In this document: one piece after another, positions 2,206 to 62,966 of the stretch
Layout of the letters: each line of letters starts with the position of its first letter
Numbering within the stretch: the stretch's first letter is position 1
From: Raja brachyura
Lineage: Eukaryota
Assembly: GCA_963514005.1 (NCBI GenBank)
Contig: OY740811.1
Coordinates: forward strand, 12,152,001-12,216,000
Length of the DNA stretch: 64,000 bases
Direction: 5' to 3'
Program-made: the position numbers and the translations under genes
The notes under the pieces: model-generated
The model's input: only the letters and a program-made list of their open reading frames with translations
What the model was told of the DNA's origin: nothing
Database searches by the model: none

Positions 2206-2323
2206 TTGTCTCAACTCGAAACGTCACCTATCTCCTTCGCTCCTTAGATGCGGCTGCACCCGCTGAGTTTCTCCAGCCTTTTGTGTACTCTCGATTCTCC
2301 AGCATCTGCAGTTCCTTCTTCAA
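2206..2323 (+). mobile_element. Short Penelope-like element terminal (pLTR) fragment, 5'-truncated inside the hammerhead motif
   Basis: Body reads cgaaacgtcacctatctccttcgctccttagatg...ccagcatctgcagttccttctt, which matches the sequence following the GIY-YIG frame at 21260-21360. Flanked by a perfect 12-bp direct repeat cactgattgagc (2194-2205 / 2324-2335). Confidence 0.8.
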
Positions 2324-3180
2324 CACTGATTGAGCCATGAGTTTTCATGATTTGCAGCACAGCGATGCAAGCAAGTTGGTTAACAATTGACAATTGGAAT
2401 CGTTTAAAATATACTTTTAAAATTGTCATTGTTCACTAATGTTGAGCCATTCCAGGAATGTTTTTAAGGTGGGATTTCCCTGCAGTATTTTATTAATCTT
2501 ATTCATGAGCATCTTAACTTAAGAACATCACCCCTAGTCGTTTTATTGCCTCTTTTTCTTGCCTTCTGCAATGAGTTCTCTGTTTTCTTATTCATTCTAA
2601 ACTTCTCCCTCCACTTAAACTCTGCTGTGTGAATATTGCTCCAGAGCATTGCCATATGGTGTAGCCTATTTACTCGGACAGCCTTGATCACTTCCTTGAG
2701 GCCATCTCTAATTACTTCCTTGTATCCCGCAACTGCCAGATACCAATCCTGCTTTTGCCCTTCCTGTATTGTCCAACTCTCATCCAAATGATCCCCAAAT
2801 GTCCCCACCTTTGTTTATTCAGGTGCAAATTTTAACCAGTTGTCGAAAATATATACTTTAGTTATCCATCTATGACTCTGGTGGGATCGCATCAAGAATT
2901 TTGGCCGCAGTTTATAATGCCATAATAGTCTCCCCTCTTTCCTCACCTAAAGATAAGTAGGAGATGATCACAGACTATTTTGTCATCTGTCTGTTATCCT
3001 TCACATCCTTCCTCTGCTTTTAAGAGCATAAGAAATTGAAGAGGGGGTAGACCTTTTGGCCTCTTTAGCCTTCTTGCCAAGACATTAAGGCTTCCCAAAT
3101 CCTGGCTGTGAATCCATGGTACTTCCACATTCGGATTTTGGCTAGAGCCAGAACACGGAAACAGTCATAATCAAAATTCG

Positions 3181-3380
3181 ACACGCAGTGCTGGAGTAAC
3201 TCAGCTCTCAGACACGTGATGTTTTGGGTTGGGACCCTTCTTCACTCAGTCTGAAATCCTGATCAGGATCCAAAACATCATCTATCCATACCCTCCGGAA
3301 ATGCTGCCTGGCCTGCAGAGTTACTCCAGCACTTTGTGTCCTTTTTTGTAAACTAGCATCTGTAGTTCTTTGTATCCACA
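3181..3380. mobile_element. Degenerate fold-back pair of Penelope-like terminal fragments
   Basis: Left arm agtgctggagtaactc...gttttgggttgggacccttcttca is in inverse orientation to right arm ccaaaacatca...gagttactccagcact...agcatctgtagttc. Confidence 0.65.
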
Positions 3381-5719
3381 CAAGCAAAGTTACGCTAACA
3401 TGGTGTGCCAAACAGTCTTGCTCCAAAACTTGTTTTATCCATTTTTGTTCAACTGCCATTACCCGATTCAAATTTTAGAGTCCAATTATAGATAAAGTAT
3501 CTGAACAGCAGCAATTATAACATAATTAAAAGATTTTAATGTAGTAAAGCAATGCAAGACACTTCACCAGGCCATAATCAAATATAAATTGACACAAACC
3601 CCTCCATAAGATGATGTTGGGATAGTTAGCTAAAAGCTAGGTCAAAGAATGAGATGTTGAAGAATCTTTGGGAGGTGAGAGAAACAGATTGATAAAGAGT
3701 TAGAAGTAAATATAGGATTTTAGGACCCACGTAACAGCTAAAGACAAAGTCATTAATGTAGGGCGATGAAAATAGAGGCCAAAATTAGACACTGGAGATT
3801 TGATCATGATTGGGCAGGAGGAGGTTTTAGAACTGAGGGAACTGGAGCAGTTGTTATTCTGAGAATCAACCTGAGAGAGCAAGTGAGTGATGGATGAACA
3901 ATAACTTCTATGTACATGGGTTCATTATCGGAAGTTAGAATTTGGGTGACCTTAACCATGCTTTCATTAGATCTGGATTTAGTTGTGTAGAAATTGCCAA
4001 GAGTAACAAAGGTGTGGATGAGGCTTTCAGCAGCTGGTAGCTGAGCTGGGGCAGAGGTCCCATGTGTGCAATTTACCAAATGATTCTTGTAAAGGTAGGA
4101 ATATCTGAACCTCAAACAATAAAACTCAAATTCTTGATTTGTGCCGTGTGTGTTTATCTTGCAGCAGTTTACATTTGCGCCAATACATAAAAAGATATAA
4201 AAGTCCACATAAATTTGGCGTCCTTGGTTTGATGTGCTAAGCTATTTTATTTGCCCTATTGTTAATGCAAGACAGACCACGATTTGAATCTGGAATCTAT
4301 CTCGTCTTAACCAGTTTACCATGTGTGACACTAAAAAGAAGTTATGGTGTGTTTTATAACATTTCAAGTTTTTGGCTTGAAATTAAAATCTTGTTCAAGG
4401 AAGCTTTTTGTTTCTAACATGAGCCAGTTAGTCTTTTTTATGGAGATTTGTTGGGACTTGCATAACTCTCATGGTTGAATAAAACTGATGTGTGATCATG
4501 TTATAACTGCCACACTGGTAGCCCCCATAAGTCATGGTTTGTAATGCTAATAGTTAAATATATTAAAATCTGCTGAAACTCCTGGATATAATGACTAAAG
4601 AAAAGCAGGAACATTTGCCTTGATGGTACTCAATGCTTTCATAATAATGTAAAAGTTGATGAACATTATTACCATCTTTGAATAATTGATGTTCTAATTA
4701 ATCATGACATACAAGTACTGAGTTGTGTACTGAGTTGTTCAGCTCCAAGAGATTGAAAATTCAAGATGTTGTGCAGTTTTTCACTGATACTTATTCACCT
4801 TATGGGTGGTGTCTTGCAAATACATAACGGCAACAAATTATGTAAAAACAGGCCGCTAACTTGAACTAAAGCATCCCTGACCATAGGTGCAAGTAGTTCA
4901 ATGAACTTCACGCGTATCGGGTTTTGTAAACTTGAGATCCTGTACAATGTTACAAAATTGTAAATCAGTCCAGATTGGAAGCCAATGCATTGTGCTCTCC
5001 TACATATCTTTCTATCATCAAAGAAGCATGTAAAATGAAATAATCTGTATGATCTGCTGCTGCATGTAAAAATTACTGGTCTGTGCCAAACAGTTTTTAA
5101 CTAAGGTCGGCACCACCTGTGGATAGTCAGTGAAAGTGTGGCAGCTCAATTTGAATTAGTTGCCCAAATCTTTGGCAAAAATTGAATGAATGTTTTCATA
5201 CATGAACTTTAACTCAACCATTATCAAATTACATTCTACCATAGAAAATGACCTGGAGTGAGAATAGCTCAATCCTAAACCAAAGCCTGGATCAGATGAT
5301 AGGCCAGCTGGCAAAGATCCCTACTAAGGCTGTTTATCTCACTTTGCAAAGCTTGTTGTGTTTGGCTTCTGTGGCGAGTTTCCAGATTTGACTGAAACAT
5401 GTCTTAAGAACACAAGAAATACGCAGCTCAATGACATAATTCACAATGCGTTAGCAGACTAATAGAGCTACTGCCTCACAACGCCGGTGACCTGGGTTCA
5501 ATCTTTGCAAGCTTTGTTTGGAGTTTGCATGTCCTTCTCGTAACCACATGAGTTTTTTCTGGGTTCCTGCCAGGTGTCATGGACGTGCCAGTTGGTAGGT
5601 TAATTGGCCACTGCAAATAGCACCTATCGTGTGGTTGAGTGGGAAAAACTGGGGTAATTGATGGGAATGAGGGAGAATAAAAATTGAATTAGTGTAAATG
5701 CATGCTTGATGGTCTATGG

Positions 5720-6165
5720 CAGGGGTCGGCAACCTATGGCCCCCAGGCCGAATGCGGCCCACAACCCAAAATCACCTGGCCTGCAGGCGGTTTTATTTCC
5801 CCATAATCATCTGGCCCGCTGGGCTCCCGAGCAGCGGCTGGCCAGGCTCTGGCTTTACCACATCCTGTGCAAAGCCGCCGGCACGGCTGCGTACCTTCTG
5901 TGAACATGTTTAAGAAAGAAATGCATATGCTGGAAAAATCGAAGGTAGTCAAAGTGCTGGAGAAACTCAGCAAGGATTGCATGAGGCTGCCTCACCCGCT
6001 GAGTTTCTCCAGCAATTTTGTCTATCTTCTGTGAACACGTGATTTGATGCCTGCCATCCGGGGCAGGATGGGAACGGGACCCATGTGTACACGTGATAGA
6101 TGTGGCCAGCCATCCGCACACAGACGCGTCTCGGTCCATATGCAGAACAAGGTTGACGACCTCTG
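5720..6165. mobile_element. Non-autonomous hAT (Charlie-type) MITE
   Basis: 15-bp TIRs caggggtcggcaacc / ggttgacgacctctg (2 mismatches) and a perfect 8-bp TSD gtctatgg (5712-5719 / 6166-6173). Confidence 0.9.
5907..6025. mobile_element. Fold-back Penelope-like terminal fragment nested in the hAT MITE
   Basis: Inverted arms gctggagaaactcagc / gctgagtttctccagc and a 12-bp TSD cttctgtgaaca (5895-5906 / 6026-6037). Confidence 0.85.
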
Positions 6166-6865: not shown

Positions 6866-7541
6866 GTCCGGCATCACATGTTGAGGGGTGAAAGTTAAAC
6901 TGCAAAAGCAAACTTGATTTGAATGTTGTGGAAAAGTTTAAAAAATGTAATGTATATTTTCATATGTGCAACTTTTCTCCAATTACTGCTAGTTGACGAG
7001 CTTTTCTTGGTCCATGTTAAACTTCTTTTTAAAATATGTAAAAGTGCTGATAATTGCCATTGGATTATAGAGCAAAATCTATTTCGAAATAAATAGTTTT
7101 TCTTTTCATTTTTGAATGTGCAGTTCATAGGGTATTTGGTGAAAACCAAAGATGCTTCGTCTTAGTGCATAAAATATTGTATCTGTTCGATTTCAGTGGT
7201 CTAGCCATGGGTTCTAAACCGCTTTATTGTACACTGTTATGATTAACTTGCGTATTTTGTGTGATTTAATGTGTTTTTCTCAGTTTATTCAACAGCCCTT
7301 TATAAATAAATTACACGTTTCAACATTATTTGGCAGTTATATCTAGAGCAGCAACTAAGGACAAGATCAGATGCAGAGGAATCAGTGTGCAATCTCGAAT
7401 TCAATGATCACATCAAGTTAATAATTCAAAGATTATGATTTTTTTCTAATCTAGGTTGCAAAGCAACAATCAAATTTTTGTGAGATATGAGGGTATAATT
7501 GGAGTAAATACATTTATTTTACCAGGCAAAGTTGCAGCATA

Positions 7542-7834
7542 GAGGGTTACACAAAAAGCTGGAGAAACTCAGCGGGTGCAGCAGCATCTAAGGAGCGAAG
7601 GAGATGGGCAACGTTTCGGGTCGAGACCCTTCTTCAGACTCTGATTATTTGCTCCACTTGCTTGTATACTTTGTGTTTCTCATATGTCCGGCATCACATG
7701 TTGAGGGGTGAAGAAGGGTCTCGACCCGAAACGTCGCCTATCTCCTTCGCTCCTTAGATGCTGCTGCACCCGCTGAGTTTCTCCAGCTTTTTGTGTAACC
7801 CTCGATTCTCCAGCATCTGCAGTTCCTTCTTTAA
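7542..7834. mobile_element. Fold-back Penelope-like insertion with a hammerhead motif on each arm and a captured 72-nt local sequence between them
   Basis: Minus arm 7542-7640 and plus arm 7709-7834 are near-perfect inverted repeats. Perfect 15-bp TSD caaagttgcagcata (7527-7541 / 7835-7849). The spacer 7641-7712 is a copy of 6821-6892. Confidence 0.92.
7606..7640 (-). ncRNA. Minimal type-I hammerhead ribozyme motif (Penelope-type), intact core
   Basis: Minus strand reads agt-CTGAAGA-A-GGGTC-TC-GACCC-GAAA-CG-TT-gccc: CUGANGA box, perfect stem II, GAAA box, loopless palindromic stem III and a GUU triplet. Confidence 0.7.
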
Positions 7835-8039
7835 CAAAGTTGCAGCATAATTGTCAGAGCACATTTCCTTTAGTATCTTTGTGTCGCTTTCTAAGGTCGT
7901 GGTAACTAGTATTGTTCGCATTGGTTTTGAATTTATTGCGCCTAAAAAAAAAGTGGGACTCACTTGAACAGACCTTAGAAAACAATATAAAAATGACATC
8001 TGTAATTCATCGAATTGTAAAATAAGGAATAATGCAGAA

Positions 8040-8990: not shown

Positions 8991-11103
8991 CTCTACATCC
9001 TCACCACGCGCCATTTAACACCTTGTCGATAGGCATGCTAAAATCCAGCTAGTTTATTATGCCCATATAATCAGTATCAGAATTGGTTTATTATTGTCAC
9101 ATGTTTCTAGATGCAGTGAAAATAAAAAAATGCCAGAATGCAGAATATAGTGTTGCAATATTATAGCATTACAAGGACAGAAAAGGTGCAGATGAAAGTG
9201 CAAGGGTCACAATGAGATGAGTAGGATCGGGACTACATCCTTACTTTAATCGTTGAGCTGCCAGTATCCACGTACATGTATTATGAAAAATTCAAAGCAG
9301 CTCTGGTTCCAAAACATGCAGAGATCAAGAAAAATTACATGGAAAAGGAAATGTTCACATTTATTCTTGTAAAGATTTGGAGTCTGAGTAAACTGTCCCT
9401 GAGTGTGCACAGTATCCACGGACGATTTCTATTTATTTGCGGATACCTGACACACTGTGCAGTTGTATAATGACAATGTGCTGTTTCTGGCAAGTTGCTG
9501 ATCTTTAATAAAAGGCAAGCGATCAGGGCTGGAAGCAACAGAATAAATATCTTAACTTGTTGAGAGATGTTTGTGATCTTCCTGGCACGCACTCCACTAG
9601 GTTTCATTTCTTGTTAAAATAAAGATTAGCATGGTTGACAACAATATAAATGGTTACTTTGAGAACTTCCTATGTGTTTGACATCCTTTTCTGTTTCTGT
9701 TGAAAATGCTTTTTCAAATTGAGTATCTGAAAAGTCCACATTGCTTACTTAAATTTAATGCCCAATTTAAACAGTATAAAATTACTTGCTTTATATATGT
9801 CCTGGAAAATGATTGATGCCGCTTAAAGCTATCCTTTTGTTTTGTTCCAAATTTAATTTTGCATTCCATGATACTTGAAAAACACCAGACTGCCTCTTCC
9901 CAGAATTAGGTCTCTTTGAAGTTTACTTTTCAGGTTAAACCTGGCTCATTTTTGAGAGGACTTGGAATTTAATTAGGCAAGCTGTGTAATACACAAGATT
10001 TTTGTTTAAGCAAGGCGGACGATTAGTTTTAAATAACAGGTATAAGAGTTAGTGCTTTAGATTTGATATGATTGTCTTTTTGGCTGTATTGTCTTTTTAG
10101 ACCTCGCAGACCAGTACTATTTCTTCTGCAGCTGCAGGAGTGCTGAATGGATCTAATTAGAATGTGACTTGCCAGCATGAATTGACAGGTCATTTTGAAA
10201 TTGTCAGATCGGAGTATACTGACCGTCAATGTCCAGACCGTCAGCTGTCATCATCAAAAACGCCAAAGAAATAGACCAGTCTCCATAAACACTAAAATGG
10301 TATATAACTAAACTGGAATCTAACCTCTATTTATAGGAGGGCTGTAAAGTTCTTGAGCTTTGCTCTTCTGTTTGATGATGTTATATGGACCACTGTTTAG
10401 ATTACAGCCTAGCAATTGTTATTATTATAACCCATCCCGATTCCCATCCTCTGCCACACCACAACTCTATTGCCATCAATTATTTATATTTATAGACTTT
10501 TTTTTGCTGTTGCAGTTGAACGAATATACAGCCAAAGATGATGCTTTTTTGACCCAGTGGAGAAGTGCTTGTTTTCTTCACAAATTGTAAATTGACCATG
10601 GGGTTATCAACGCAGTATGCTTGGGGCAAAAAAACTCAAGTTGTTTGAAGCATTTTTACAGGTTCTTTGAAATAACAGTAATATACCATAATTCCATTCA
10701 CAGCTTTGCAGTAATGTTTGAACCCTTTAACTTGACTTTGCTAGATTTATTTTGTTAGGTTAGAACCACAGAACAATACTTAACGAAGCAGACTGATGTC
10801 AAACCATAGCAATATTATAAATAACTAAATAAATGAATTGTTGTAAAGAATATTTACTTCCAGGACATTAGCGATGGTCTTTTTCCCAGGATCACAATAT
10901 CTTGCAAAAGGTATAGTGAAAATTTGGTATTGGTTTATCATTGTTACATATACCAAGAGAGAGTGAAAATATGTGTTTGTGTGTTATCCAGTCAAATCAT
11001 ATCATGCATGGGTACAGTTAAGTCATGCACAAGTACAATGAGTAGAGAAAAATACCAGAATTGTAGAATTAAGTGCCACCGTTCTAATGTTGCATTGACT
11101 TGG

Positions 11104-11296
11104 AGACATGAGACTGCAGATGCAAAAAAACAAAATGCTGGAGGAACTTAGCAAATCAGGCAGCACATGTGGAAGGTAATGGACAGTTGATGTTTCAGGT
11201 TGGGTCCCGAAAGACCTTAGTCAAAGGTCCCAACCTGAACCGTCAACTGTCTATTTCCATCCAGAGATGCTGCCTGGCCCTCAGAGTTCCTCCAGG
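11104..11296. mobile_element. Old fold-back Penelope-like terminal pair
   Basis: ctggaggaact...acagttgatgtttcaggttggg versus cccaacctgaaccgtcaactgt...gagttcctccag in inverted orientation. Confidence 0.7.
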
Positions 11297-13585
11297 TCTT
11301 CGAGGTTCATTGCCTTTTCTTGGCAGTATAGTAACCCTTTCTCTTTGATCTAATACATTCTCTAATTTCTCTTGATAGCTATTTTTCCTGTATTTTACTT
11401 TAAAATAATCATGTAAACTATGTATTTTATAAATGTTAGCTATTGCTTGTTTGCTGTCATCCTTTTTAATTTAGTTAGCCTGTCTACTCAAGCCAACACG
11501 TGCATCACGTTACCTTTGCTCCAATTTAAGACTTAGATTTCAGATCAAGGCAAATAGCTTTCAGTTTTTACATTAAATAATTTCATTTTATGATTGTTAT
11601 TCTCTGAAGTTTAATTTACGGCACAGCATGCGGTTGATCTTTACTGAGGTTTGGTTTTGTTTCTTCTGAGGCTTGCTTTTGTTCTTGTCAAAGTCTACAG
11701 TAGAGGACACAAAAGTGCTGAGTCCTGAAGAACAAGGTTCAATCTTGTTAGGTATTAAGGCCGAACCATAACCACAGTTAAATGAACTCTTAATTTATAC
11801 TAATTGGACCATGTTAGGAACGATTTGGCATCAAATAGTTTGAGACTTGTTGTTCAATGCAAACATGGTAGATTGGATTAAACTAGAAATTGAGTTAGCA
11901 TTCAGTTTATGATCTCCAAATATATTATAAAATCAAGTTAACGAGCCTCCAGCACATTACATTTTAAACAACATGTGCTCATTGAGGTATGTGCAAATTG
12001 TCAGGTAAACCACCTGGTTCACTAGTTTTCTCTAGTTAAGGAAATCTGTCATCCTTGCCCCTATTTGTCTTTCTATGGACCGGAAGCTCATGCCGGGTTT
12101 AGGTTTATTTTGAAAAGATTTGTTTAGCATGCTATCCACACAGATCAGACAATCAGTTCAAACTCAAGTACAATAGATGGAGCAAAGGGGAAGATGCAGC
12201 ATGCAGAATATAGTTCTCAGCATTGCAGAGCATCAGTTCCTTAGACAAAGTCCAATGTCCTCATTGGCATAGAGGTGAATCAAACAGCACGCTAGCTTAT
12301 GGAAGCCTGATGAAAGAGGGGAAGAAGTCCCCTCCTGAGTCTGGTGGTGCGTGTTTTCAAGCTCTGTACCCTTTACCGGACAGGAGCCACGAGGACTAGA
12401 CTTGTATTTGCCTCAGTTCAGAAGTAAATGGAGATAAATAGTAATTGCAAACCTTGCCAATGAATGAAGATAAAAATGTAGGTACTTTTCCAATTAATAG
12501 TATTGTGGGAACACCCTTAACATAGAGAATATAGAGGTCAAGATGGCCCATTGTCATGGCAAGAGCAACAAGGAATGCATCATATCCCAGAGTCAAAGAG
12601 CAATAAGAATGATCCTTCCTGGTTTGGGGTGATTAGCCCCCCTGAGGCTATATAGTCTATAGAACAAAATGAAATGTTGATGCCAAACAATAGCTTTGAT
12701 CTCCTGAGTTTGAAGGATTAAAAAAAATAAATAAACCAGTTAGAAAAGTGAAGGATTTATATATCGCCAAACATTTCAGCATGTAATGAACACTTCCAAA
12801 TATTGAGAGGCCATTTGGATTGCTGAGTTTAAAAAAAGAAATCCAAATCATAATCCCATTAATCCTAGTGTTTGCAATTTGCCAGCTCGCAGTCATTCAA
12901 CAGAGGAAGGTTTAACGTTACCAGGTTTTAGATGGGATTGAAGTTTCCACTTCATGCACTTGTGCCGATTGTTGAATGTGTATTTTAAAGATCTATGGCT
13001 TTCTTTTGTACTACACTCCCACACCCGAAAGAGGCCTAATTTAGAAACTATTAACAAAAATGTTGGGATATTGAGACTTCCTGTGATCAAAATAAATGTT
13101 TTCTCAGTCAAAGTGCAGCATAAATTGAGGCCTCTGTGATAAGGTAATTATAGTTTCAACACAGCAACACTTCTTACAGAAGATCCTAAACTTCAGCATA
13201 TCTCAGGGAGGATGTACTGCCGATTTGTGTTTCATGGTGGTTTATTTTATAGTAGCAAAATGCCTGTTAAGATTTTGTTTAGACTGCATAATGACTACAT
13301 AAGTATGAACAGTGACTGGATGAGCAAGATTATAAATGACTAAGATTTACCAGCGGCAGCCTGGGGATGAGTTCTTCATTTGTGTCTTGCTGAGAGGACT
13401 GAAATCCTTTGAAGTTTCCAATCATTGCTGGATGATGTGCTGCGAGGGCATTTTTATTGAATTTGGCACTGGGCTTTTAGACTAAATATATAACTGGATT
13501 CATGCTATTATCTCAGAAGTATCTTTGCCCGCAATTAGAGGTTTTGCTCTTTGCTTTAACTTCATGCTGAAACAAATAGTTGTTG

Positions 13586-18435: not shown

Positions 18436-18566
18436 GGGTCAGAAGAAGGGTCTCGACCCGAAACGTCACCCATTCCTTCTCTCCAGAGATGCTGCCTGTC
18501 CCGCTCAGTTGTTCCAGCTTTTTGTGTCTATCTTCGGTTTAAATCAGCATCTGCAGTACCTTCCTA
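18436..18566 (+). mobile_element. Solo Penelope-like terminal fragment with hammerhead motif (U4->A)
   Basis: gggt-cAgaaga-a-gggtctcgaccc-gaaacgtc-accc with a 4-bp stem I (gggt/accc). 10-bp TSD cacaatgata (18426-18435 / 18567-18576). Confidence 0.85.
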
Positions 18567-18787
18567 CACAATGATATCATGTTAGTTTGCAAATATTGGT
18601 CCTATAATAAATCAGTAAATAAAATTCTCGATCATATATTAACTGGCTGTTTAGATGGCTGGTTGCTTAGAATATTTTTTTTCTTTCTAATCAGTCCGCT
18701 ACTGTAAGAGCTGTGGGAGAAGTGTCTGGAAATTTGAAGAGGGGTGTAAATTCCAGCTCTGAGTTTGGAAACCATTTTGGAAATATC

Positions 18788-18890
18788 CTTGTGGCTCTGA
18801 AGAGTCTCAGAGTCTAAAGAAACGTCACCCAGTCCTTCTCTGCAGAGATGCTGCATTCCCGTTGAGTTACTCCAGCATTTTGTGTCTATC
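18788..18890 (+). mobile_element. Penelope-like terminal fragment with scrambled hammerhead stem II
   Basis: ctgaagagtctcagagtctaaagaaacgtcaccc followed by the same body. 12-bp TSD tttggaaatatc (18776-18787 / 18891-18902). Confidence 0.75.
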
Positions 18891-19389
18891 TTTGGAAATA
18901 TCGTCTTTGAATACATTCCCATTAAAGACATGAAATAACAAAATTGAAAGCATTCAAGACAGATATAATAAATTCTGATAAGGTTAACATTGTAAACAGG
19001 AAATTGTTCCGTAATGTTTGATACTTCGGTATCAATAGCCGGACATGAATGGTTAGATATTTTTATGACTGATTCCCATCATGTCCGGAGGAAAGTTTAA
19101 AAAGTACCTCATTGTTGAAAATAAGACGGGTGAAAAATTCCAAAGTACAAACTAGCCACGTGCCTGATCAGTGATGGTGCATGCATTGTAGATTATGTTA
19201 AAAGCCTTATGAAAAGATCAAAAAGCCCACAAATTGAACTGTAACACAATTCAATTACAAAATATTGTTTTATACTTCACTGAAGTAGAGGCCTGAAGGC
19301 AAATGGGAAGAGATTCTACTGTGAGCTTCTGCAGATCATTTTAATAGTCTTGTGAAATAAAATTAATACATTTTTCAATAGTTAAGTCT

Positions 19390-20859: not shown

Positions 20860-21168
20860 ACCTGCACCTCCAACCTCATCTACTGCATCCGCTGCTCTAG
20901 ATGCCAGCTGATCTATATCGGTGAGACCAAGCGGAGGCTTGGCGATCGTTTCGCCGAACACCTCCGCTCGGTCCGCAATAACCAACCCGACCTCCCGGTG
21001 GCTCAGCACTTCAACTCCCCCTCTCATTCCGTAACCGACCTCTCTGTCCTGGGCCTCCTCCACGGCCAGAGTGAGCAACACCGCAAATTGGAGGAACAGC
21101 ACCTCGTATTCCGCTTGGGGAGTCTGCATCCTCTGGGCTTGAACATTGAATTTTCTCAATTCTGTTGA
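20860..21168 (+). pseudogene. Penelope-like element GIY-YIG endonuclease domain (5'-truncated, stop-free 102-codon frame, no start codon)
   Basis: My translation: TCTSNLIYCIRCSRCQLIYIGETKRRLGDRFAEHLRSVRNNQPDLPVAQHFNSPSHSVTDLSVLGLLHGQSEQHRKLEEQHLVFRLGSLHPLGLNIEFSQFC*. It shows NLIY-C..C-YIGET..L..RF.EH and L.P.GLN, diagnostic of PLE endonucleases. Confidence 0.93.
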
Positions 21169-21359
21169 CCCTTGCTGTCTCCTCCCCTTCCCACTTCTCC
21201 CCCAGCCCTCGGGCTCCTCCTTCTCCTTTTTCCTTTCTTCTCTCCGCCCCTCCCACCTCCCATCAGTCTGAAGAAGGGTTTCGGCCCGAAACGTTGCTTA
21301 TCTCCTTCGCTCCTTAGATGCTGCTGCACCCGCTGCGTTTCTCCAGCCTTTTGTGTACC
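20862..21359 (+). mobile_element. 5'-truncated Penelope-like retroelement (endonuclease + pLTR)
   Basis: GIY-YIG frame, pyrimidine tract, hammerhead motif and terminal body. 11-bp TSD ctcctttaaac (20851-20861) / ctcccttaaac (21360-21370), 1 mismatch. Confidence 0.9.
21265..21298 (+). ncRNA. Minimal hammerhead ribozyme motif in Penelope pLTR
   Basis: agt-CTGAAGA(21268-74)-A-GGGT-TTCG-GCCC-GAAA-CGTT-gct: stem II capped by UUCG and a 3-bp stem I (agt/gct with G.U). Confidence 0.7.
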
Positions 21360-42106: not shown

Positions 42107-42322
42107 GTAGAAACAAAGAGCTGCAGACGCTGGTTAATATACAAAAGAACACAAACTGTAGGAGTAACTCAGCAAGTCAGGCAGCATTTCTGGAGAACAT
42201 GGGTAGGTGATGTTTCTGGCCGAGACCCTTCTTCGGTCTGAAGAAGGGACTCGACCCAAAACCTCCCCTGTCCATGTTCTCCAGTGATACTGCCTGAAAT
42301 GCTGAGTGCGTCCAGCACTTTG
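42107..42322. mobile_element. Fold-back Penelope-like terminal pair
   Basis: ggagaacatggg...gagacccttcttcgg | tctgaagaagggactcgaccc...ccatgttctcc arms. Followed by a tandem duplication of ttgttggagtaactcagcatt. Confidence 0.8.
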
Positions 42323-42401
42323 TTGGAGTAACTCAGCATTTGAAATGTTTGTTGGAGTAACTCAGCATTGAAGATGTTTTATTGGGGCACCAATGGGGTA
42401 A

Positions 42402-42929: not shown

Positions 42930-43095
42930 CAGACACAAAGTGCTGGAGTAACTCAGCGGGTCAGGCATTAGGGTTAGGCATTTTCTCCAGAGATGCTGCC
43001 TGACCCGCTGAGTTACTCCAGCATTTTGTGTCTACCTTACTCCAGCATTTTGTGTAATCTTTGGTATAAACTAGCATCTGCAGTTCCTGCCCACA
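42930..43095. mobile_element. Fold-back Penelope-like fragment inserted in a CR1 tail (CR1 continues antisense to ~43360)
   Basis: agacacaaagtgctggagtaactcagcgggtcaggca / tgcctgacccgctgagttactccagcattttgtgtct is a near-perfect inverted pair. Confidence 0.85.
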
Positions 43096-44389
43096 TAAAA
43101 ATTACAGCACAGGAACAAGCCCCTTATCCCACAATGTCCATGTCAAACCTGATGTAAAGACAAACCCATCTCATCTGCCTGCACCTGATCCATATTCCTC
43201 CATTTGATGCATCACAATGTGCATATCAATAAATCTCTTGAACACCACAATCGTATCTGCCTCCACCACCGCCCTAGGCAATGGGTTCCAGGCGCTGATC
43301 ACCCTCTGTGATCGGTGCCAAACACTGCTTTTAAACTGACCCCCTCACATTAAAGCTATAAAGGGTTAGGATAATAGCAATTGATAACTGGAAAACAAAG
43401 AAAATGTAATTATATTAAGTAGTTCTGACAAGGACAATACATTACAAAGTAGTGAGAAGGGTTTTTAAAATGTCATTATCAGTGATCACTGTGTTTAAGG
43501 AAAGTATAAAGCTGTGGACTGATTTGAATATATTTCCATTATCATCCTACTTGCAGTTATCTTGAGTATTCAGAATTGTGCCGCATACTTTAATTTCCCA
43601 CCAAATCATTTAATTCTGCACGTGGCTCCAATCAGCTGGGTTGCCCATTTGATATCAATGCAAATAATTTGTTTGAGATAATTGTCTCAATCTGCTGCCT
43701 TTTAGATTCCATCGCATCCCTGCTTCTTGCAAAAGCATGTTGAATAGTTTTTGTGCTCTGTATGGTGAGGAAGTAAGCTTTCAACTCCATCTCAGTTCAC
43801 TTCATATCCACAACATTGCTTGTAATCCATGCTCTGTTACTTTATGACATGCTTTACATGCATCCTGTGTTCTTCTTGTCCAACACCAGATCCTACTTGC
43901 CTATCATTCTTGTCTTCCCTAATCTATTTTCCCTGCCTCAAGCACAGAGAATTCAAAATCCCCAAGCTCATCATTTAAGCGCTTTCACAGCCTTGACGCT
44001 AGTTGCATCTCCATCCCTGAACATATTCTAAATTTGCCTCCAGTGTGTATTCTTTTTCTTTCGAGTTGAACCAACACAGTGCATAGTGGGGGTGGGGCAA
44101 GGGGTAGCCAGTGGTGCGGGTAAAAGCAAAATGCAGTAAAACCTTCTGATAAATTGACCCCCTTGGGACTTCTGCGATAGTAGTCTGACAGATTTTCTGG
44201 AAGATTGGATGTTACTCTTATTTGTACCCAAATACCTTTCTACATGTTATGACTGTAACTTAATATATTTTCTGCTGCACTTAAACAGTATGAGAAATAC
44301 ACAGGCCAACTATACCCTGGTTAGACTTAAACCAACCCATGTTCCAGATGGAACTCTGTGGGTCATGCAACATCTGTGATGTGAACTGG

Positions 44390-45050
44390 ATAGACGACAT
44401 TTCAACCTGAAATGTCGTCTGTCTACTTCACTCCCCAAATGCTGTTTATCTCGCTAAAATTCTCTAGTAGTATGGTTTTTTTGCTCAGGAGTCAAACATC
44501 TGCACCCTTTTGTATCTCCACATTCCTGATTCCTGGAGTTCCGGACTGGGGAGGAAAACGCCAGAACAAGTTTTTTTTTTTTCTTTCCCAAGATGTTGCC
44601 TGCCCTGCTGAGTTGCTCCAGCACTTTGTATAAACTCAGTATAAACCAGCATCTGCAGTTCCTTCCTGCACAGAATAAACTGGAATGCACTCAGTCGGTC
44701 AGGTAGCATCTTTGGAGAAAACATTGTTAATATTTGCAGTTCATAATTTTCATCTGAACTCTTTTCATATAAATTATGGGAACTAGTCGATGCATGAGGG
44801 AAAGAAAGAACAAACAGAGGACTCTGGCACACTGGAAAACAAGCGAGATGGGATGATATGCATGACAACAGGGAGGTTAATGCATCTGGAAAACAAAGAA
44901 AAGATAGATAAATAGGAATGACGGAATCATTATCTGTAGACTTGTTAAAATGATGAATTAAATGTTAAGTCTGGAGGGCTCAAGTTCCCTCTCAAAAGAT
45001 GCAGTGTTGTTCCTTGAGCTTGTGTGGTTCTTCATTGCAACACGACAGGA
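44390..45050. mobile_element. Cluster of degraded Penelope-like fragments
   Basis: tagacgacatttcaacctgaaatgtcgtctg palindrome, gatgttgcctgccctgctgagttgctccagcac, and an antisense endonuclease-tail remnant near 44960-45050. Confidence 0.55.
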
Positions 45051-45859
45051 ACGAGGGTATGTGGCACATGTAATAGGTGTTGGTGCTATAAGAATTGTAT
45101 GAAACTGCTCTTTGGTTTCGTGTTGAATTTACCGGAGATTTTGTCTGTCTCTGGGGTGAAAGTCACGGCAAGTAAATGATGCCCCTTGCTGTGAGTTTTT
45201 ATTTGATTAAATCTATTTTTAAAATTTTCAGTAATTCAGAGATACTGAAAGATTGAATGAATGGTACTGCTTGATATAATTACATTTTTGTCCAATACCA
45301 GGAATGGAACACTGAATGCTATGCATAAATTATTTTGTGTTATTTATATATAATTTATTTATAATTCTTCTGTGTCCAAGTGCCCGTGATGCTGCTGCAA
45401 GTAAGATTTTCATTGTACCTGAACTTTATTGTACTTGTGGACATGACAATAGTCCGAATAGTTGTCCAGTGTAAGAAGGGTCCCGACCCAAACCGTTGCC
45501 CTCCCTTTTACTTTGTGTGGATCTTCGGAGTATACCAGCATCTGCAATTCTTTTCTACACAAGATGACAACTTGTCTAAGCTTCACTTGATGAACTCTCA
45601 TTCAAACAGCAGTTCATTCGATTGATTATGTCATTCGATTGAAGTCATAAATGGCGTAAAATAAAAAACTTGCCTGTACTTTTAGAGTTCCAGAGATGTG
45701 ATTTATCAAAAAATAATGAAATGAGTATTTACATTGTACATTGGTTTTGAAGATAAACCAGAACAGAAAGAAAACGTGAAAACAGAAATTAGTGGAAAAC
45801 TTATAGTTACAAAACATTTATCATCAGTGGTCATTCACAACCTTGGATAGTTTGCTGGA

Positions 45860-46505: not shown

Positions 46506-46533
46506 TTGATAAATTATTGGAAGAATTTTGGCT

Positions 46534-49634: not shown

Positions 49635-51550
49635 CAGGGCACGAAATTAGCGGTTGCCCGGGTGCCAATGACCACCCAAAGTGCCGCCGGGCAACCTAAA
49701 CACCGACTCATTTTGTCCGGCATGGCACGCAAGTACTGGTTAATACTGGTTTATACTGATAGACACAAAAAACTCTAGTAACTCCGGGTCAGGCAGCATC
49801 TCTGGAGAATAGGAACGTGACATCTCGTGTCGGCGGCGGCCGTATTCCTCTAGAATCTTTGATTGCGGGGCAAAGATACTAGGTGCGTGGTGATGAAGGG
49901 TTGGAGCGAATGACGGGCCTCATACAGCGGCAGCAGCTCCACCGCCTCCTCCCGCGCCGGCCTCGGCGTGCGAGAGGAGTTGATTTGAAAGCGCTGTTGG
50001 TGGATTTGCAGGCAACGGCCGCTATCGCCCTGATAACGGCTGTTGCTTACAATCCGTTAACGGCGTTTTCAAAACAACCCCTCTCGCACGCCGAGGGAGG
50101 GAGGGGGAGGTCTCCTTCCGCCGTCTGAAGCAGCTGCACTGCTCGGCCCCGCACCCTACCTGTCGGCTGGCGGAGGAGGGGAGGCGGTGGCGAGGAGATC
50201 CCAACCGCCTCCCCCTTTCGCGGTGGCACTTTGGCGTTGGACAGGGACGGCCAAGGCAGCGGGGCGATGTTGTCCGAGGAGCGCTGACCTTCCTTCCTCC
50301 CCACCTCCTCTGCCCCTTTCCCATCCTCTCTCGCCCTCTCTCTCGCCCGCTCTCGCGCCCGCTCTCGCTCTCTCCCCCTTCAGTCCTCACTTACATTCCC
50401 TGTGCTACCCTACCCACCTCGCATTGATTCCCCTGCCCCTCTCCTGAAGAAGGGTCTCAACCCGCAACGTTGCCTATTTCCTTAGCTCCATAGATGGTGC
50501 CTCACCCGCTGAATTTTTCCAGCATTTTTGTCCACCTCCATTCATCCTGTACTGATCCCCGCCATTCATCCCGCACTTATACCCCCATTCAACACCACTG
50601 ACATCCCCCGTGCTCTCCCCTCACAATTTTACATACTCCAACCAACACGTACTAATTCACCTGCCTCAATCCATCCATTCCGCACCGATTGACTTCTCAA
50701 CCCCCACTCCCACCCCCCCCCCCGCCATCTATCCACCCCGCACTGATTCACACACCCCCCCCCCCCCCCCCCCCCGACCCTATTGTGCTTCATGGTCTTC
50801 AGAGCGAACGTTGACTATGGTTGATAACTGAATACAATCAAATGTGTTTTGATTCCCAATGTTATTATTTGTTTTGACACCTTTAAACATATGTAGTGTG
50901 CATGGTTAATCATATATGTTACCATGGTCCAGGATTTATTGACACAGGTTGATCATATGCTGAATAATCCAACCACATTTTTGTTTGCAAGTGGAAAGGA
51001 CTAATATAAATTGCATTAATTGCAATGTGTAAAAAGAGTTGAGATATTGTATTATAATTTTGCTGCATGTCATTGTGGTATATATCATGTTTTGATTGGT
51101 GAATATGTTTAGTTTGTGAGTTATTTGAAGCAGAAATAATATTTGAATGTAGACAAAAGGGCTGGAGAAACTCAGCGGATGCGGCAGCATCTATGGAGCG
51201 AAGGAAATAGGCAACGTTTTGGGCTGAAACCCTTCTTTAGACTGATGGGTTTCGGCCTGAAACGTTGCCTATTTCCTTCGCTCCATAGATGCTGCTGGAC
51301 CCACTGAGTTTCTCCAGCACCTTTGTCTACCTTCGATTTTCCAGCATCTGCAGTTCCTTCTTGAGCATAATATGTGAATGCTTCATTGAACATAATTCTA
51401 ACTGGTAACTACGCACTTCGTCCGAGCACATTATCGCATGCGTCATGCAAACCGTCTTAAATGACCACCTAAACTGTCATTTGGCAACCTAAAAAGCTGT
51501 CAAGGTTGCCCGGCTGGCAACTGGGGAAAAAAAGTTAAGCGAGAGCCCTG
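49635..51550 (+). mobile_element. Composite non-autonomous hAT-like DNA transposon, copy 1 (5-bp TSD, hAT5-like)
   Basis: Termini cagggcacgaaatta / ttaagcgagagccctg. TSD atgaa/atgga, defined by the interrupted CR1. Subterminal ggcaac/gttgcc motifs. Colinear with 55257-58466. Confidence 0.85.
51150..51366. mobile_element. Fold-back Penelope-like insertion inside hAT-like copy 1
   Basis: ~85-bp inverted arms and a 14-bp TSD ataatat(t/g)tgaatg (51136-51149 / 51367-51380). The empty site is present at 58284-58297 in copy 2. Confidence 0.92.
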
Positions 51551-54449: not shown

Positions 54450-54553
54450 TTTCCCGAAACATCGCCAATTCCTTCGCTCCATACATGCTGATTTTCTCCA
54501 GCATTTTGTGTCTACCTTCGATTTCACCAGCATCTGCAGTTCTTTCTTAAACA
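54450..54553 (+). mobile_element. Penelope-like terminal fragment within a CR1 3' remnant
   Basis: cccgaaacatcgcc...ttccttcgctccata...ccagcatctgcagttctttcttaaaca. Confidence 0.75.
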
Positions 54554-54697
54554 TCCCTGTGAATCTTTTCTACACTCTCTATAACTTAGTCATATCATTC
54601 CTGTAGCAAGTCGATCAGAACCGCACACGATACTCTGTAGGTATACAAAAATACTTTTGTATACTTGTATATATAAATACACAAAATACTCTCCTCC

Positions 54698-58466: not shown

Positions 58467-60297
58467 AAAAGGTTTAAATATCTAGCCAGCGATTCTTAAC
58501 TCGTCTCTTATTTCAGATGATTTGCATTTTAATAACAATATTTCATCCTAAAATTGTAAGATTAAGATATTTTTTCAAGCAATGGTGAGATATTTTTGTT
58601 TTTTGAAACATTGATTGAAAATAATGATGTTAGGGAAATGGCATTGCTAGGAGTCTTTTGGAAATGGTGGAAGAGTTGGAAGCCTGTCACTATAATATGA
58701 CATTTAACTGTAAAGGCAAGCTGTATGAATCTACAAAGGAGTTAAACTTATTCTTTAATTTTCATGCTGGAAGTATATAATTTGTTGTGGATATATGGTC
58801 CTAACAGGATATCCTGGTTGACTGGCAGTTTATGGTCGATCATGCTTCAAATCGGGTTTATTATTTTTGAGAAATATGTGCATTTTCTGCATGATTTATC
58901 TTGTCAGTAGTGATTGTGTTGATACTCATTAGCATTCCAGTGGACCTCATTATTTTCTTATATCCAGTAGCTATCCTCGTTTGTAACAGATTGGCTTAGG
59001 CCCAGGCCATTTGGGCATGTTGTAAGAATTATCAGGACCAGTCTCTATCTTGTATGTGCAAACAAGATTGCATGATTTATGTTAAGTAATATGCACCAAC
59101 AATAGAAATTAGTAAGATGATGTTTGTCTGAAGTTAATTTAAAGGGTAATTTCTGAGTGAGGTTATCTTTTTAATCTGGTATGTTTTAGAAAGTACTGAA
59201 TATGCAAAACCAGAATACTGTATTTATTTGTAATTTAAATGCCTGGAGTACCAAATTAGTCTTGTTTTGGTCTTTTAAGCATTGAACACTAGCTTACTAG
59301 AGATGCTTTTTAATTCGCAGACATGTTTAATTGAAGTTGGAGTTAAATATTGGGATGTGTTTATACAATGCGTTAATTTTGTAATTCAGTTGCACTAAAT
59401 GTGCGATGGGAAGGAATGTAAATTCTAATATTTTGTGCATTTCTTGGTGAGTTTACGTCTTCCACGATGGCTAACTTAAAAATATAACATCATGTAAAGG
59501 GCTCATAAGGGCACCAGGCCAAAATGTGCATAAATAAACTTTTCTGATTAGATTCAGACAGGCAACCAAAGAATGACGTAATATCTTAAGGTATTCAGTT
59601 AGCAACAATGCTGGTCTCATCTAACTGGAATGTAAATGTTACCCAAATTACTGTGCCTGAAAATTCTTATGGTCTCAATTACTGTCTCAATGAGCAGTTC
59701 TCATGTTTAACTATCACATTAATGCAAATCATACCAGTAAGTGTGGAAAGATGGACACCCCATGCTGGCTAATGTAATGGGTTCATGAGTAGTTTCAAAG
59801 ACTTACAGAATTTTATTCCAGTAATTTAGGTTTGTGAGCATAATAAGCATTTCAGTTTTTTTTTAAATTTCAGATTGCCAGCATCCTTTGTAAAAATGTC
59901 ATGTCTAAGTTGAGAGTTCTTTTCCTCCTCATAGTCGTAGAATTTATAACTTTGAGTCCAAATGTTGAAGGTGTCTTGAGATGAAATATGAATCCATACT
60001 CTCATCCATCTATCCAAGTTCTTGTTAAAAATCTATTTATGGGTAGTAGATAATGTTGGCAAGATCAGTATTTACTTTTTAACCCCCAAGTACCTAGGAA
60101 AAGATGGAATGGGAAATATATTTTATATTTGTTGTCAATATGGCGTATGATTTGGAATTGTTCTTCTGCCATTTTCCTGCATGATGGAAGCTGTAGAGTG
60201 GGAATTATTGGAGCAATCTAGGCAAGTAACTGCAGTGCCAATGATGAACAGAGTAAAGGTCTTTTCTCGCCTCCAGCCCTTCACCCTACTCTCTTTC

Positions 60298-60395
60298 AGG
60301 CTGAAGATGGGTCCTGAACCGAAACGTCACCCATCCTTTTTCTCCAGAGATGATGGCTGACCCACTGAGTCACTCCAGCACTTTGGTGTCTATCT
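60298..60395 (+). mobile_element. Penelope-like terminal fragment with hammerhead-like motif
   Basis: ctgaagatgggtcctgaaccgaaacgtcaccc...tctccagagatg...gagtcactccagcactttggtgtctatct. Confidence 0.8.
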
Positions 60396-62809
60396 AAGGT
60401 TTAAGGTGCTGCAATAAGGACCAATTAAGTTACTGGTTTGCCTGGGATGGTGTTGCCTTGACTAATATTCTTCATTTGACTGATCCCATGCACAAAAATT
60501 AGATCAGTTAGTTATTTGCTGGAATTTGGCTGGTGCAGAATAGCTTTCTTGTATCGTGCTTTCGTGGATCATAGAAATATATATCTTATAATATGTTATT
60601 TTAAATCTTCCAAATCTGGTTCTGGCATATGTTTAAATTATCAGTTACATCTGAATAAAGGAAAAGCACAGGCCAATGTATTGGATTTTTATCCTGCATT
60701 ATTTAAGATAATTAATGTGTGTTGTACACAGGATGTACAACACAAATTGTCCAATTTTACACAAAAAGTAACACAAGTGTTAACACATTGTCCCATTTTA
60801 TCATTTGCCACATTAAATGTCAAAAATGATGTTCAACTTTGAAAATTCAGCATCGGAGGGAGTAATTTGACAACTTATCTCGGTCAACACATGGCTATAA
60901 GAGCAGCGAGCAAGAACAATGGTAGTTCAGCTAGAATGCCCTCTCTGATCCTCGAGCAGTAATCCTTACGAGAAAGAGGTTTTAAATAGAGATCAAATGA
61001 GAATCGGATCAGGTGTAATTGTGGCATCTTCCAAAAACTGCTCGATAATCTATTTGCTAAAATTTGTTATTTGGATGAATCACTGAAACTCTTCTGGCCA
61101 TGAATTGTCTTCCAATTTCATCTTGAAGGATTAAAGTAAGACAACTACTGTTGAGAATAAATTTGCTCAATTGGCCGTCAGGTGCTTTGCGATATTGAGT
61201 TGTAAAAGCTGCCATATAAATTGATCCCTTTTGTGTTTTTTGGGTGCATTTTTAGTGGATTTTTCTTTTCATTAAGTTTGTCGTTCCCAAGCTGCCTGCT
61301 TAATCTTTGTGTAGTTTTATTTTTAGAGCATATTTAGTCACATGTTTTGATTTAAATGATTTTGACTGGTGTAGATTTATTCTGGGAAATGGTGGTCTAA
61401 ATTCTAATTTGAATTTAACGCATTAAAATGTTCACAAGTATTGATGGATATGTTCGAGCATTTAATATTTAAGTAACAAAATACAACATGTCTAAAAGGA
61501 AAGAAAGTTATTGTTGCAGAGAAATTATTTTTTAATTTGGGGAAATTTGCAGCTGGGTATGTAGCAAAGGTAAGGGGTCATTTGCAGACCTGCACGAAAC
61601 AAGTCTCATTATCAGGACTGTTGAAAATGTGAACAAAGGGTGGTGGTTAACTGAAGTAGAAATAAATTGCTTGAAACTGTATTCAGCTTCTTGGTCCAGA
61701 GGTTCGAGAATGCATTTCTGTTGTAGATGGCAAGTGTATGTACATTTCTCATTAGTAATCGAAAGGCCTGACCTTTCATAACAAACCTAGAAGATTTTCA
61801 TATCAAAGCATTAGTCTGACTTTAATATGTTTTAGTGTGTTTTTAGCTTTGTGATTAATTTGCCAGCAATGTGCAACCTTAAGGCGTTGTGTACATTTTT
61901 CCAGCACATTATTTAAAATGCCAGTCCACATTTGGGTTGGTTTTCTTTTTTTTCCAGAAGTAATATCTTTTTAACAGTATGTGGATCTTAGCCCCGGTTC
62001 CCCGGCTGAATAAATGGAGTTTGTTTTCATGAAAATATATCCAATTTGTTTTAACTGTTATGCTGCTGTTGTATGAAATTCAGTTAGGGGCAGTGATATT
62101 AGCATCTCCGCTAAAATAAACAAGGCCATGATGCTAAATCCTGAATTTAAAAATTTGATCTCGGCAATTTTGCCTGTTTTAAGCAAAGGAAAACAATTCA
62201 AATTTATTTGCTTTCTAAAACAGATAACCATTTAGCTGCTTAATTTGGATGAATGCTCAAAATGAATTGCCTAAATACGACCATCCACGCAAGATTAAGA
62301 ACCTTCATTTTGAAGGAACCAGATTAATCAATAGCAGTAAGCTTGGATTTGTTAAGGAAGGCTTATCTGTCTGACCAATGATATTTTGTAAGATAGCAAG
62401 GATTATTGATGAGAGTAGTGTATTTGATGTAGTCTACATGGATCTCAGTTTGTCTTTTGCAAGTCCCCCCTCCATAGCAAAGTGATAGCGTTATGGTCCA
62501 AGGGGGAGTGACAAATCAGATCCAAAAATGACTCGTAGAAAGCCAAGAAGTACACAAATGATTTCATTTTACATTCCTTCTCATAGCACATTTAGTGCAA
62601 CTGAATGACAAAATAAGCACATTATATAATCACCGGCCAATATTTAACTAACTCCAACTTCAATGAAACACGTCTCACAGTCTTTTACCCCGTGTAGGGG
62701 AGTCTAAAACTAGAAGGCACTGGTTTATGGTAAGAAAATAAAGATTTAGGTTTAGTTTTATTATTGTCCTCTTCCTCCGCTCCAGGGAAAACGGTCTCAG
62801 TCTCACCAG

Positions 62810-62966
62810 AAAAGGACACAAAATGATTGAGTAACTCAGTGGGTCAGCCAAAATCTCCGGAGAACATGGGTCGGCGACGTTTCGGTTCTGGACCCTTCTT
62901 CAGGGCGGCGACGTTTCGGTTCGGGACCCTTTTGTAAACCAGCATCTGTAGTTCCTTGTGTCTACC
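62810..62966. mobile_element. Fold-back Penelope-like fragment with tandemly duplicated hammerhead segment
   Basis: ggcgacgtttcggttctggacccttcttcag followed by ggcgacgtttcggttcgggaccctt. Sits inside an antisense CR1 remnant (62770-63056). Confidence 0.75.

Follow-up and report, generated by a model that had tools for sequence, protein, structure and literature searches.

A window of 64,000 nt from Raja brachyura (the whole stretch of DNA analyzed) contains 39 arms of a single ~95- to 135-nt module, distributed over ~27 independent insertions, or 1 per 2.4 kb (Table 1). Judged from its sequence, the module is the 3′ terminus of a Penelope-like element (PLE), consisting of the pLTR end and an optional "tail," because in two copies (E8 and E15) it lies directly 3′ of the end of a GIY-YIG endonuclease (EN) ORF. 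A profile made from window copies gave 39 matches at E<1e-3, 44 at E≤1, and 0 in the reversed window; an earlier profile gave 37 matches in the window versus 0 on the control. With arm boundaries and 5′ positions set by hand (boundaries of E10b and E14 are rough), the 29 module loci, ~27 of them independent, total 3,930 bp, or 6.2% of the window. The first-pass annotation, which counted ~20 insertions at about one per 3 kb, was right about the high density and too low in number. Its motif sites were all recovered [7611-7637(−), 21268-21294(+), 7708/9, 18440, 28289, 42238, 50444, 56877/8, 60301, and 62877-62903(−)]; the one at 7709, listed as a motif "variant," is actually a 5′ truncation joined by microhomology. 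Most loci are separate insertion events, as it had held, except that 49743/55345 and 50444/56877 were carried along within two copies of a DNA transposon and do not represent four events. A host gene search with Pfam covered 147 of the 317 stop-free frames of at least 55 aa and gave no match; short exons may be present.

Table 1 Module copies and associated features in the window
Feature	Position	Strand	TSD or other evidence
E1: single tailed arm, begins in stem II	2206..2325	+	12-bp TSD 2194/2324
E2: head-to-head pair, tail on right arm	3178..3385	.	
E3: head-to-head pair without hammerhead, tail on left arm	5907..6028	.	12-bp TSD 5895/6026
E4: young pair; left arm (−) untailed, intact hammerhead; right arm (+) tailed	7541..7837	.	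15-bp TSD 7527/7835
E4 filler: 69 bp identical to host DNA 6824-6892	7644..7712	+	
E5: older pair, left-arm tail partly deleted	11098..11310	.	
E6: single tailed arm, begins 4 nt before core	18436..18570	+	10-bp TSD 18426/18567
E7: single untailed arm	18788..18895	+	12-bp TSD 18776/18891
E8: C-terminal GIY-YIG endonuclease, 5′-truncated Neptune-like PLE	20860..21168	+	Pfam PF01541
E8: pyrimidine-rich 3′ UTR, endonuclease stop to hammerhead	21169..21267	+	sequence
E8: untailed module, intact hammerhead core 21268-21295	21268..21362	+	weak 11-bp TSD 20851/21360
E9: single tailed arm	23880..24015	+	
E10: two same-orientation pieces, 24435-24517 (body and tail) and 24600-24663 (hammerhead region)	24435..24670	−	
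E11: single untailed arm	28279..28375	+	18-bp TSD 28261/28374, 1 mismatch
E12: single untailed arm	33305..33406	−	11-bp TSD 33296/33406
E13: old arm, subfamily D	33822..33912	+	
E14: old subfamily D head-to-head pair, core variant N7=U, tail ambiguous	34200..34408	.	
E15: second EN-bearing 3′ end, untailed, hammerhead deleted	35104..35482	−	frameshifted GIY-YIG piece 35284-35462
E16: pair joined at core start, tail on left arm	42105..42330	.	
E17: pair without hammerhead, telomere-like filler, right arm tailed	42930..43097	.	weak TSD 42922/43097
E18: old pair, tail on right arm	44330..44520	.	
E19a (+, tailed) and E19b (−, subfamily D): tail-to-tail neighbors	44575..44765	.	
E20: tailed arm, internal deletion	45466..45561	+	
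E21: arm inside DNA transposon copy 1	49743..49835	−	paralog E25 55345-55455
E22: arm inside DNA transposon copy 1	50444..50538	+	paralog E26 56877-56972
E23: pair, right arm tailed	51148..51368	.	14-bp TSD 51136/51367, 1 mismatch; empty site 58284-58297
E24: tailed arm, begins at stem II end	54453..54555	+	
E27: untailed arm and ~40 nt of pyrimidine-rich sequence upstream	60260..60395	+	
E28: untailed arm (−), partial hammerhead duplicate, tail-only piece (+) 62931-62960	62808..62960	.	

The E8 endonuclease matches its Pfam family with an E value of 4.4e-05, above cutoff, and its best match (88%) is LOC129700131 of Leucoraja erinacea (little skate); the E15 piece was identified by tblastn and blastn. 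Both EN copies begin downstream of the RT-EN linker, and no RT piece was found in the window; RT domains are present in the endonuclease relatives and in their relatives. Of 78 full-length relatives, 71 have the linker CX2-5CxxC, as do the named elasmobranch matches; in P0002 it fits only if the last residue is relaxed. Among C-terminal EN+ PLEs, this linker marks Neptune/Nematis (PMC8557442). The element is provisionally assigned as Neptune-like, by a motif that is shared with Nematis and read in relatives rather than in the window copies. Short copies cluster with the EN-bearing ones (E8 with E1/E4, support 0.92; E15 with E17b, 0.74) in a weak tree of ~100-nt alignments and only 2 EN-bearing copies. 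A reading of the tail as an ORF start is not supported here, module translations having no match to a profile of the relatives' N-termini. No full-length element, partial tandem pLTR, or transcription start site lies within the window.

All seven TSDs reported previously are real, each locus scoring at least 10, and an eighth (E12) was absent from that list. Such scores occur in 8/29 loci versus 4/1,492 random flank pairs. E8 and E17 carry weaker TSDs (score 8; null, 52/1,492), and a credible TSD is absent at the remaining 19/29 loci; an apparent TSD at E19b was rejected as an artefact of module sequence. For the insertion at 51136, a sister copy provides the empty site: both flanks align to it, overlapping by the TSD, which is thereby proven. 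TSDs are 71% AT versus 61% for the window, a difference given without a significance test. The TSDs and the empty site bear out the earlier view of these copies as insertions rather than deletion relics. They also bear on an origin at the DNA level, either as solo pLTRs after recombination or as MITE-like palindromes moving as DNA. The inverted structures do look MITE-like, and two arms did travel as DNA transposon passengers; however, TSD length varies from 10 to 18 bp, the arms are asymmetric with variable 5′ ends, and the empty site indicates a clean insertion. This origin is refuted for TSD-bounded copies and, for the family, scarcely credible. The copies' own TSDs had also been taken to mark a separate unit. 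That step fails because 5′-truncated retrotransposon copies carry TSDs as well, among them, with a weak TSD, the EN-bearing copy at 20860.

The copies have two 3′ ends, tailed and untailed, and their 5′ ends are concentrated: 30/39 fall within a ~30-nt zone at the hammerhead, from −10 to +21 (C3=1). The stop rate is 0.046 per nt in this zone versus 0.004 elsewhere (~10×; p=1e-10), the body rate being lowered by very short arms that the search misses. The concentration persists among TSD- or junction-bounded arms (17/22; p=6e-6) and with one arm per event (11/14; p=3e-4). Only 3/39 arms extend >10 nt upstream of the core, leaving 36/39 without upstream element sequence. Plain random truncation is insufficient, as there are fewer far-upstream arms than steady truncation gives. 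Head-to-head pairs have exactly one tail in 8/9 cases and two tails in 0/9, and the 5′ stop positions of paired arms correlate (r=0.94; permutation p=0.005; Spearman p=0.07; n=8). The nearest arm was the partner in just 2/8 pairs, which bears on whether a pair derives from one template or two. At the E4 junction, 65 bp were copied from nearby host DNA, and the last 4 bases of the filler double as the first bases of the right arm (microhomology). Of 13 other fillers checked for local templating, none was convincing; a 17-nt match for E28 was rejected as its own duplicate. The 5′-end zone, one-tail pairs, correlated paired stops, and host-copying junction were not found in print.

The earlier identification of Penelope-like termini with a minimal hammerhead and loopless stem III was correct. 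The window motif has CUGANGA and GAAA boxes, an extra base, helix II, a palindromic 15.2-16.2, and NUH, in agreement with the published minimal type I consensus (PMC4209133, Fig. S3). Core and stem II are intact only at 7637(−) and 21268(+), as noted before, so that 2/21 arms spanning the ribozyme have an intact hammerhead. Helix II is 89.7% paired across copies and helix I 48.5% (2, 3, 4, 0, and 1 bp in five copies; 2 to 3 bp in intact ones); E6 has a 4-bp helix I and a changed U4. The UUCG variant of stem II, described as keeping the pairing, is not compensatory, since one side alone is altered (U-A to U-G). Across five subfamily majorities (E20 excluded), 10/11 core positions are invariant, compared with 5/19 just downstream (p=0.002) and 31/57 in the whole body (p=0.04). 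The idea that the core is better conserved than its flank stands on these two comparisons but not against the distal body (26/38; p=0.25, no significant excess). Among copies, non-CpG mismatches are fewer in the core (13/224) than in the body (239/1,735; p=0.0004); selection on copies was rejected as the explanation, as source-element diversity and homology-based boundaries inflate the difference. Covarying pair counts did not exceed shuffles (31/500) and RNAalifold predicted no consensus structure, both being weak tests on decayed copies. The 15 Rfam matches at E≤1 include no hammerhead, and each lies under its gathering score; the miRNA matches among them are the inverted pairs. ViennaRNA did not favor the active fold in dimers, with an energy model that leaves core contacts out.

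These data bear on the proposal of a retrozyme-like unit, in which hammerhead cleavage and ligation would yield linear or circular RNAs of unit length for reinsertion. The minimal hammerhead is genuine and its core nearly invariant across subfamilies, and animal retrozymes have been proposed as pLTR-derived (bioRxiv 10.64898/2026.07.22.740005). For the window, however, the proposal is largely refuted and very improbable: there are no head-to-tail unit arrays (only partial duplicates, in E10 and E28), the cleavage site is the start or end of no arm (0/39 5′ ends, with none in +22 to +35), the core is non-canonical and broken in 19/21 arms, and the double-hammerhead fold lies 12 to 35 kcal/mol above the MFE dimer in 5/5 copies folded. 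The hammerhead is probably a passenger that does not define the insert and decays in copies, and ribozyme activity (weak, dimer- or protein-assisted) would belong to the source elements.

The stop zone, single tails, correlated ends, and filler are consistent with a model in which both target strands prime, at two start sites internal to the RNA. We consider it likely that the copies were dead on arrival, being 3′ ends from several Neptune-like subfamilies that the element's RT and GIY-YIG endonuclease inserted. The element protein would make a staggered cut, yielding the 10- to 18-bp TSD, and reverse transcription would begin inside the RNA at either of two sites ~35 nt apart, the choice of site giving a tailed or untailed 3′ end. 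Both cut strands would often prime, each at a different site, to give a head-to-head pair with one tail, and repair would ligate the two cDNA ends, at times with microhomology or local filler. The cDNA would mostly stop at the hammerhead or slightly upstream, preferably by run-off at an RNA 5′ end located there (a pLTR start site) or alternatively by stalling at the ribozyme, folded or bound by protein; the two are indistinguishable here because the window holds no full-length element or start site. A PLE protein has been reported to cut and extend both strands, to initiate internally at two sites, one on each side of the tail, and to dispense with hammerhead cleavage (PMC11167929). Fold-back self-priming likewise predicts matched arm ends (PMC3846280).

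A SINE-like reading is kept alive by the sharp accumulation of 5′ ends at the hammerhead; it posits a non-autonomous ~100- to 135-nt element, short masters, a promoter near the hammerhead, and Neptune protein acting in trans and needing the module alone. The missing upstream sequence and the TSD-bounded units of 97 to 135 bp suit it, internal initiation would let any module-holding transcript serve as template (extrapolating from PMC11167929), and non-autonomous PLE derivatives are known (Chlamys/MRC1; PMC8557442). We regard it as unlikely: 5′ ends scatter across 30 nt rather than a single base, the weak tree gives no lineage distinct from EN-bearing copies, the core is decayed in most copies, and there is no tRNA head, no tRNA/5S/7SL Rfam match, and no A/B box pattern in any of 39 arms. 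Tentative, and less likely than not, is a broader proposal that the module is a discrete product (~100 to 135 nt) of the Neptune cycle and not random truncation debris, made by run-off from 5′-proximal internal start sites or by short masters that propagate themselves, with insertion by a dimeric PLE protein that primes on each target strand at a different RNA site. If so, skate genomes would contain a short retroelement that is very abundant, headed by a ribozyme, and independent of Pol III, together with a fossil record able to test the unresolved PLE insertion mechanism.

As an element the family is ordinary; scattered minimal hammerheads are already known, and PLE expansion is known from the whale shark (10.1101/443036). 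Its value is mechanistic, PLE inverted repeats, one-sided tails, and the hammerhead's role being unsettled questions. So dense a family supplies many countable junctions as clues to PLE insertion: a single window already displays templates that were not cleaved, pairs with a single tail, arm ends that match, and 5′ stops gathered at the ribozyme. Counted across a genome, such junctions could test double priming and place the RNA 5′ end without bench work.

Several features of the window copies, namely motifs that are single and truncated, pairs in inverted orientation, tails on one side only, and TSDs of variable length, are published PLE hallmarks. Neptune EN+ PLEs share the C-terminal GIY-YIG domain, with the CX2-5CxxC linker in relatives (Arkhipova 2006, via PMC8557442), as well as heavy 5′ truncation, an inverted truncated copy, variable TSDs, and a 30- to 40-bp tail at one end only (PMC8557442); by contrast, the window copies are truncated to an extreme degree, with a concentration at the hammerhead, and neither a full-length copy nor a partial tandem pLTR accompanies them. 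The motif resembles minimal type I hammerheads (Cervera and de la Peña 2014, PMC4209133) in its U-rich leader, CUGANGA with one extra base, helix II, GAAA, palindromic loopless helix III, and NUH. It differs in the short helix I of intact copies (only 2 to 3 bp), a length of 2 bp also being seen in the Drosophila and Culex rows. In that source, metazoan PLE motifs are mostly single and "probably related to truncated PLEs," opposite-strand pairs are reported too, and the Fig. S3 rows examined include no shark, skate, or ray. The window density far exceeds its counts (~4,000 and 9,000 per genome), which cover descriptor-matching motifs only. The copies resemble Anolis Poseidon_Ac (Frangieh et al. 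2024, PMC11167929) in having two 3′ ends, one on each side of a tail that follows the hammerhead, in being templated by uncleaved RNA, and in their AT-leaning targets; that element belongs to another clade, the biochemistry being that of Poseidon, not Neptune, and the parts of the paper examined do not treat inverted genomic pairs or 5′-end clustering. Animal non-LTR retrozymes (PMC7229834; bioRxiv 10.64898/2026.07.22.740005) are similarly non-coding and pLTR-related, with a type I hammerhead and TSDs of >4 bp, but are defined by 150- to 450-bp tandem units with consecutive hammerheads, whereas the window copies are single or head-to-head.

A profile built from copies in the window found 39 matches to the Penelope-like element (PLE) terminal module at E<1e-3 and none in the reversed window. 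With boundaries set by hand, these 39 arms (single module copies) were grouped into 29 loci, two of which are passengers duplicated within a DNA transposon, leaving about 27 independent insertions. The hammerhead motif is present at every position cited in the first-pass annotation, which rightly described a dense family but set its density too low, at about 20 insertions or one per 3 kb; the value is one per 2.4 kb. The seven target-site duplications (TSDs) it proposed all score at least 10, as does one more at 33296/33406, giving 8/29 loci compared with 4/1,492 random flank pairs. Two further loci have weak TSDs, and flank comparison found no credible TSD at 19 of the 29. An empty site is available for the insertion at 51148-51368: the sister copy aligns to both flanks (91% and 92% identity), and the alignments overlap at 58284-58297, a 14-bp TSD.

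The family is a real, dense set of truncated Neptune-like ends. An open frame at 20860-21168 codes for an endonuclease (EN) domain of the GIY-YIG type; 3′ of it come 100 nt of pyrimidine-rich sequence that lead into a module, and a second endonuclease piece (35284-35462, minus strand) likewise continues into a module. No reverse transcriptase (RT) piece of the parent element was found within the window. The best of 27 EN matches come from little skate (88%, 75%), whale shark, zebra shark, and rays, which makes a skate the probable host. These elasmobranch matches and 71/78 full-length relatives of ~900 amino acids contain the CX2-5CxxC linker, given for Neptune and Nematis in the available text of PMC8557442. 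A zebra shark gene model reads beyond the EN into a terminal peptide resembling the translated window hammerhead, a hint that the motif may be common to elasmobranchs. In the named elasmobranch gene models P0001, P0002, and P0018, the EN fragment has been taken in as the final exon, whether wrongly or through co-option.

Layout of the terminal module (C3 of the hammerhead core = 1)
Feature	Module positions
Core box	1-7
Extra base	8
Helix II	9-20
GAAA	21-24
Helix III (palindromic) with cleavage triplet	25-28
Body	to ~92
Tail (optional)	to ~128

This layout agrees with the Fig. S3 consensus in the supplement excerpt of PMC4209133. Thirty-eight arms were assigned by eye to five subfamilies, and the majority strings were compared. 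The core is invariant at 10/11 positions, the exception being a CpG; in the first box, variation is confined to N7, where the ribozyme tolerates it. Invariant positions number 5/12 in helix II (Fisher p=0.03 versus the core). The expectation that the core is better conserved than its flanks was borne out against positions 29-47 (5/19, p=0.002) but not against the distal body at 48-85 (26/38, p=0.25), and this pattern suggests selection on both core and distal body in the source elements. The subfamilies differ at the cleavage site (positions 28-29) as if one CpG, retained in the copies at 7709 and 62903, had decayed, from which the source triplet was probably GUC. Counting against activity are an intact core in only 2/21 arms that span it, a helix I of 2-3 bp in both intact arms, and a double-hammerhead fold well above the minimum free energy dimer. 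Also against activity, covariation in the hammerhead was within the range of shuffles, RNAalifold predicted no consensus structure for the module, and Rfam gave no hammerhead match in the window. Minimal hammerheads are described as cleaving weakly as dimers (PMC4209133, in part) or only with PLE protein (PMC11167929, in part).

The 5′ ends of the 39 arms, assigned by hand, fall at −10 to +21 (30 arms), at +36 to +62 (6), or further upstream (3), and none falls at +22 to +35, the interval spanning the cleavage site. The stop rate is ~10-fold higher in the hammerhead zone, and the zone persists in boundary-defined arms (17/22) and with one value per event (11/14). The inserts hold sequence flanking the cleavage site on either side and none begins at it, so the template was uncleaved RNA, which Poseidon_Ac uses in vitro according to the accessible part of PMC11167929. 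The stop zone could mark either the RNA 5′ end or an RT stall. Because the Penelope start site is located in the pLTR (PMC8557442, in part), a start at the 5′-proximal tail would give run-off after ~100-135 nt; we favor run-off at the RNA 5′ end, with stalling at the hammerhead zone as the alternative.

The module has two 3′ ends, tailed and untailed. Single-arm events include 8 tailed and 9 untailed, and exactly one tail is present in 8 of the 9 head-to-head pairs and two tails in none. The ninth, an old pair at 34200-34408, has no tail scoring against the tail profile, which was derived from 12 of the same tails it scored; the tail of the pair at 11098-11310 is weak (E=0.58). Discordance in 8/8 pairs has p=0.004 under independent arm choice, or stands at 8/9 if the old pair is taken as a miss. 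The locus at 62808-62960 has an untailed arm opposite a tail-only piece. Beside the loci at 42105-42330 and 42930-43097, pieces from the module's 3′ part are duplicated internally over short spans (42312-42367, 43037-43089), which suggests that the 3′ junction saw renewed priming or slippage.

Stop positions of paired arms are similar (r=0.94, permutation p=0.005, Spearman p=0.07, n=8, with the 5′ end of arm E4a in the pair at 7541-7837 entered as −5, not −2). Fold-back self-priming, proposed in the available portion of PMC3846280, explains these matched ends but is a poorer fit to the host-DNA filler of the 7541-7837 pair. There, the 69-bp bridge between arms (7644-7712) is identical to host DNA at 6824-6892, ~640 bp upstream, and meets the right arm via a 4-base microhomology; it is a local templated insertion, and the exact match also shows that the event is young. 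The filler at 42968-42978, between the arms of the 42930-43097 pair, approximates two telomeric repeats; no other such 11-mer occurs in the window, and 9 of its bases recur at 43362. Chance, local copying, and telomerase RNA capture are alternatives. The Poseidon_Ac protein cuts and extends both strands and initiates at two internal positions that delimit the tail (PMC11167929, in part). If both target strands prime, one at each internal RNA site, this would explain why TSDs abut both 3′ ends and why pairs have a single tail, and would account for the tail-only arm and the filler.

Other elements include two copies of a noncoding DNA transposon (49635-51550 and 55257-58466, 73-92% alike) whose terminal inverted repeats are short and whose apparent TSDs are 5 bp long (exact in copy 2, 4/5 in copy 1); their ends may be hAT-like. 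Two Neptune modules travel inside each copy, which also contains a C-rich ~24-bp minisatellite that is expanded in copy 2. A 1.6-kb element at 15143-16744, whose terminal inverted repeats of ~216 bp are 83% alike, resembles a Tc1/mariner-type relic. LINE reverse transcriptase fragments, apparently CR1-like, lie at 46513-47293 and 23298-23486 (weak RVT_1 match), and an assembly gap of 200 bases occupies 52261-52460.

The first-pass annotation likened the family to a SINE or retrozyme. SINE identity is not established, and the family is not a retrozyme: no arm starts at the cleavage site, and retrozymes are tandem units (PMC7229834; bioRxiv 10.64898/2026.07.22.740005, both in part), present in the one chondrichthyan of the latter. 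By title and abstract start, in mostly open-access literature, no paper was found on skate PLE hammerheads, on the grouping of 5′ ends there, or on how many tails the pairs carry. The portion consulted of PMC4209133 already reports minimal hammerheads mostly as single motifs, probably from truncated PLEs, plus opposite-strand pairs. Likewise described for PLEs are truncation from the 5′ side, copies in inverted orientation, and a tail at one end (PMC8557442, its preprint, and PMC8969392, in part), as well as 8- to 10-bp TSDs and unrelated DNA captured between pLTRs (PMC3846280, in part). What the junction statistics add on PLE mechanism is modest but can be tested.
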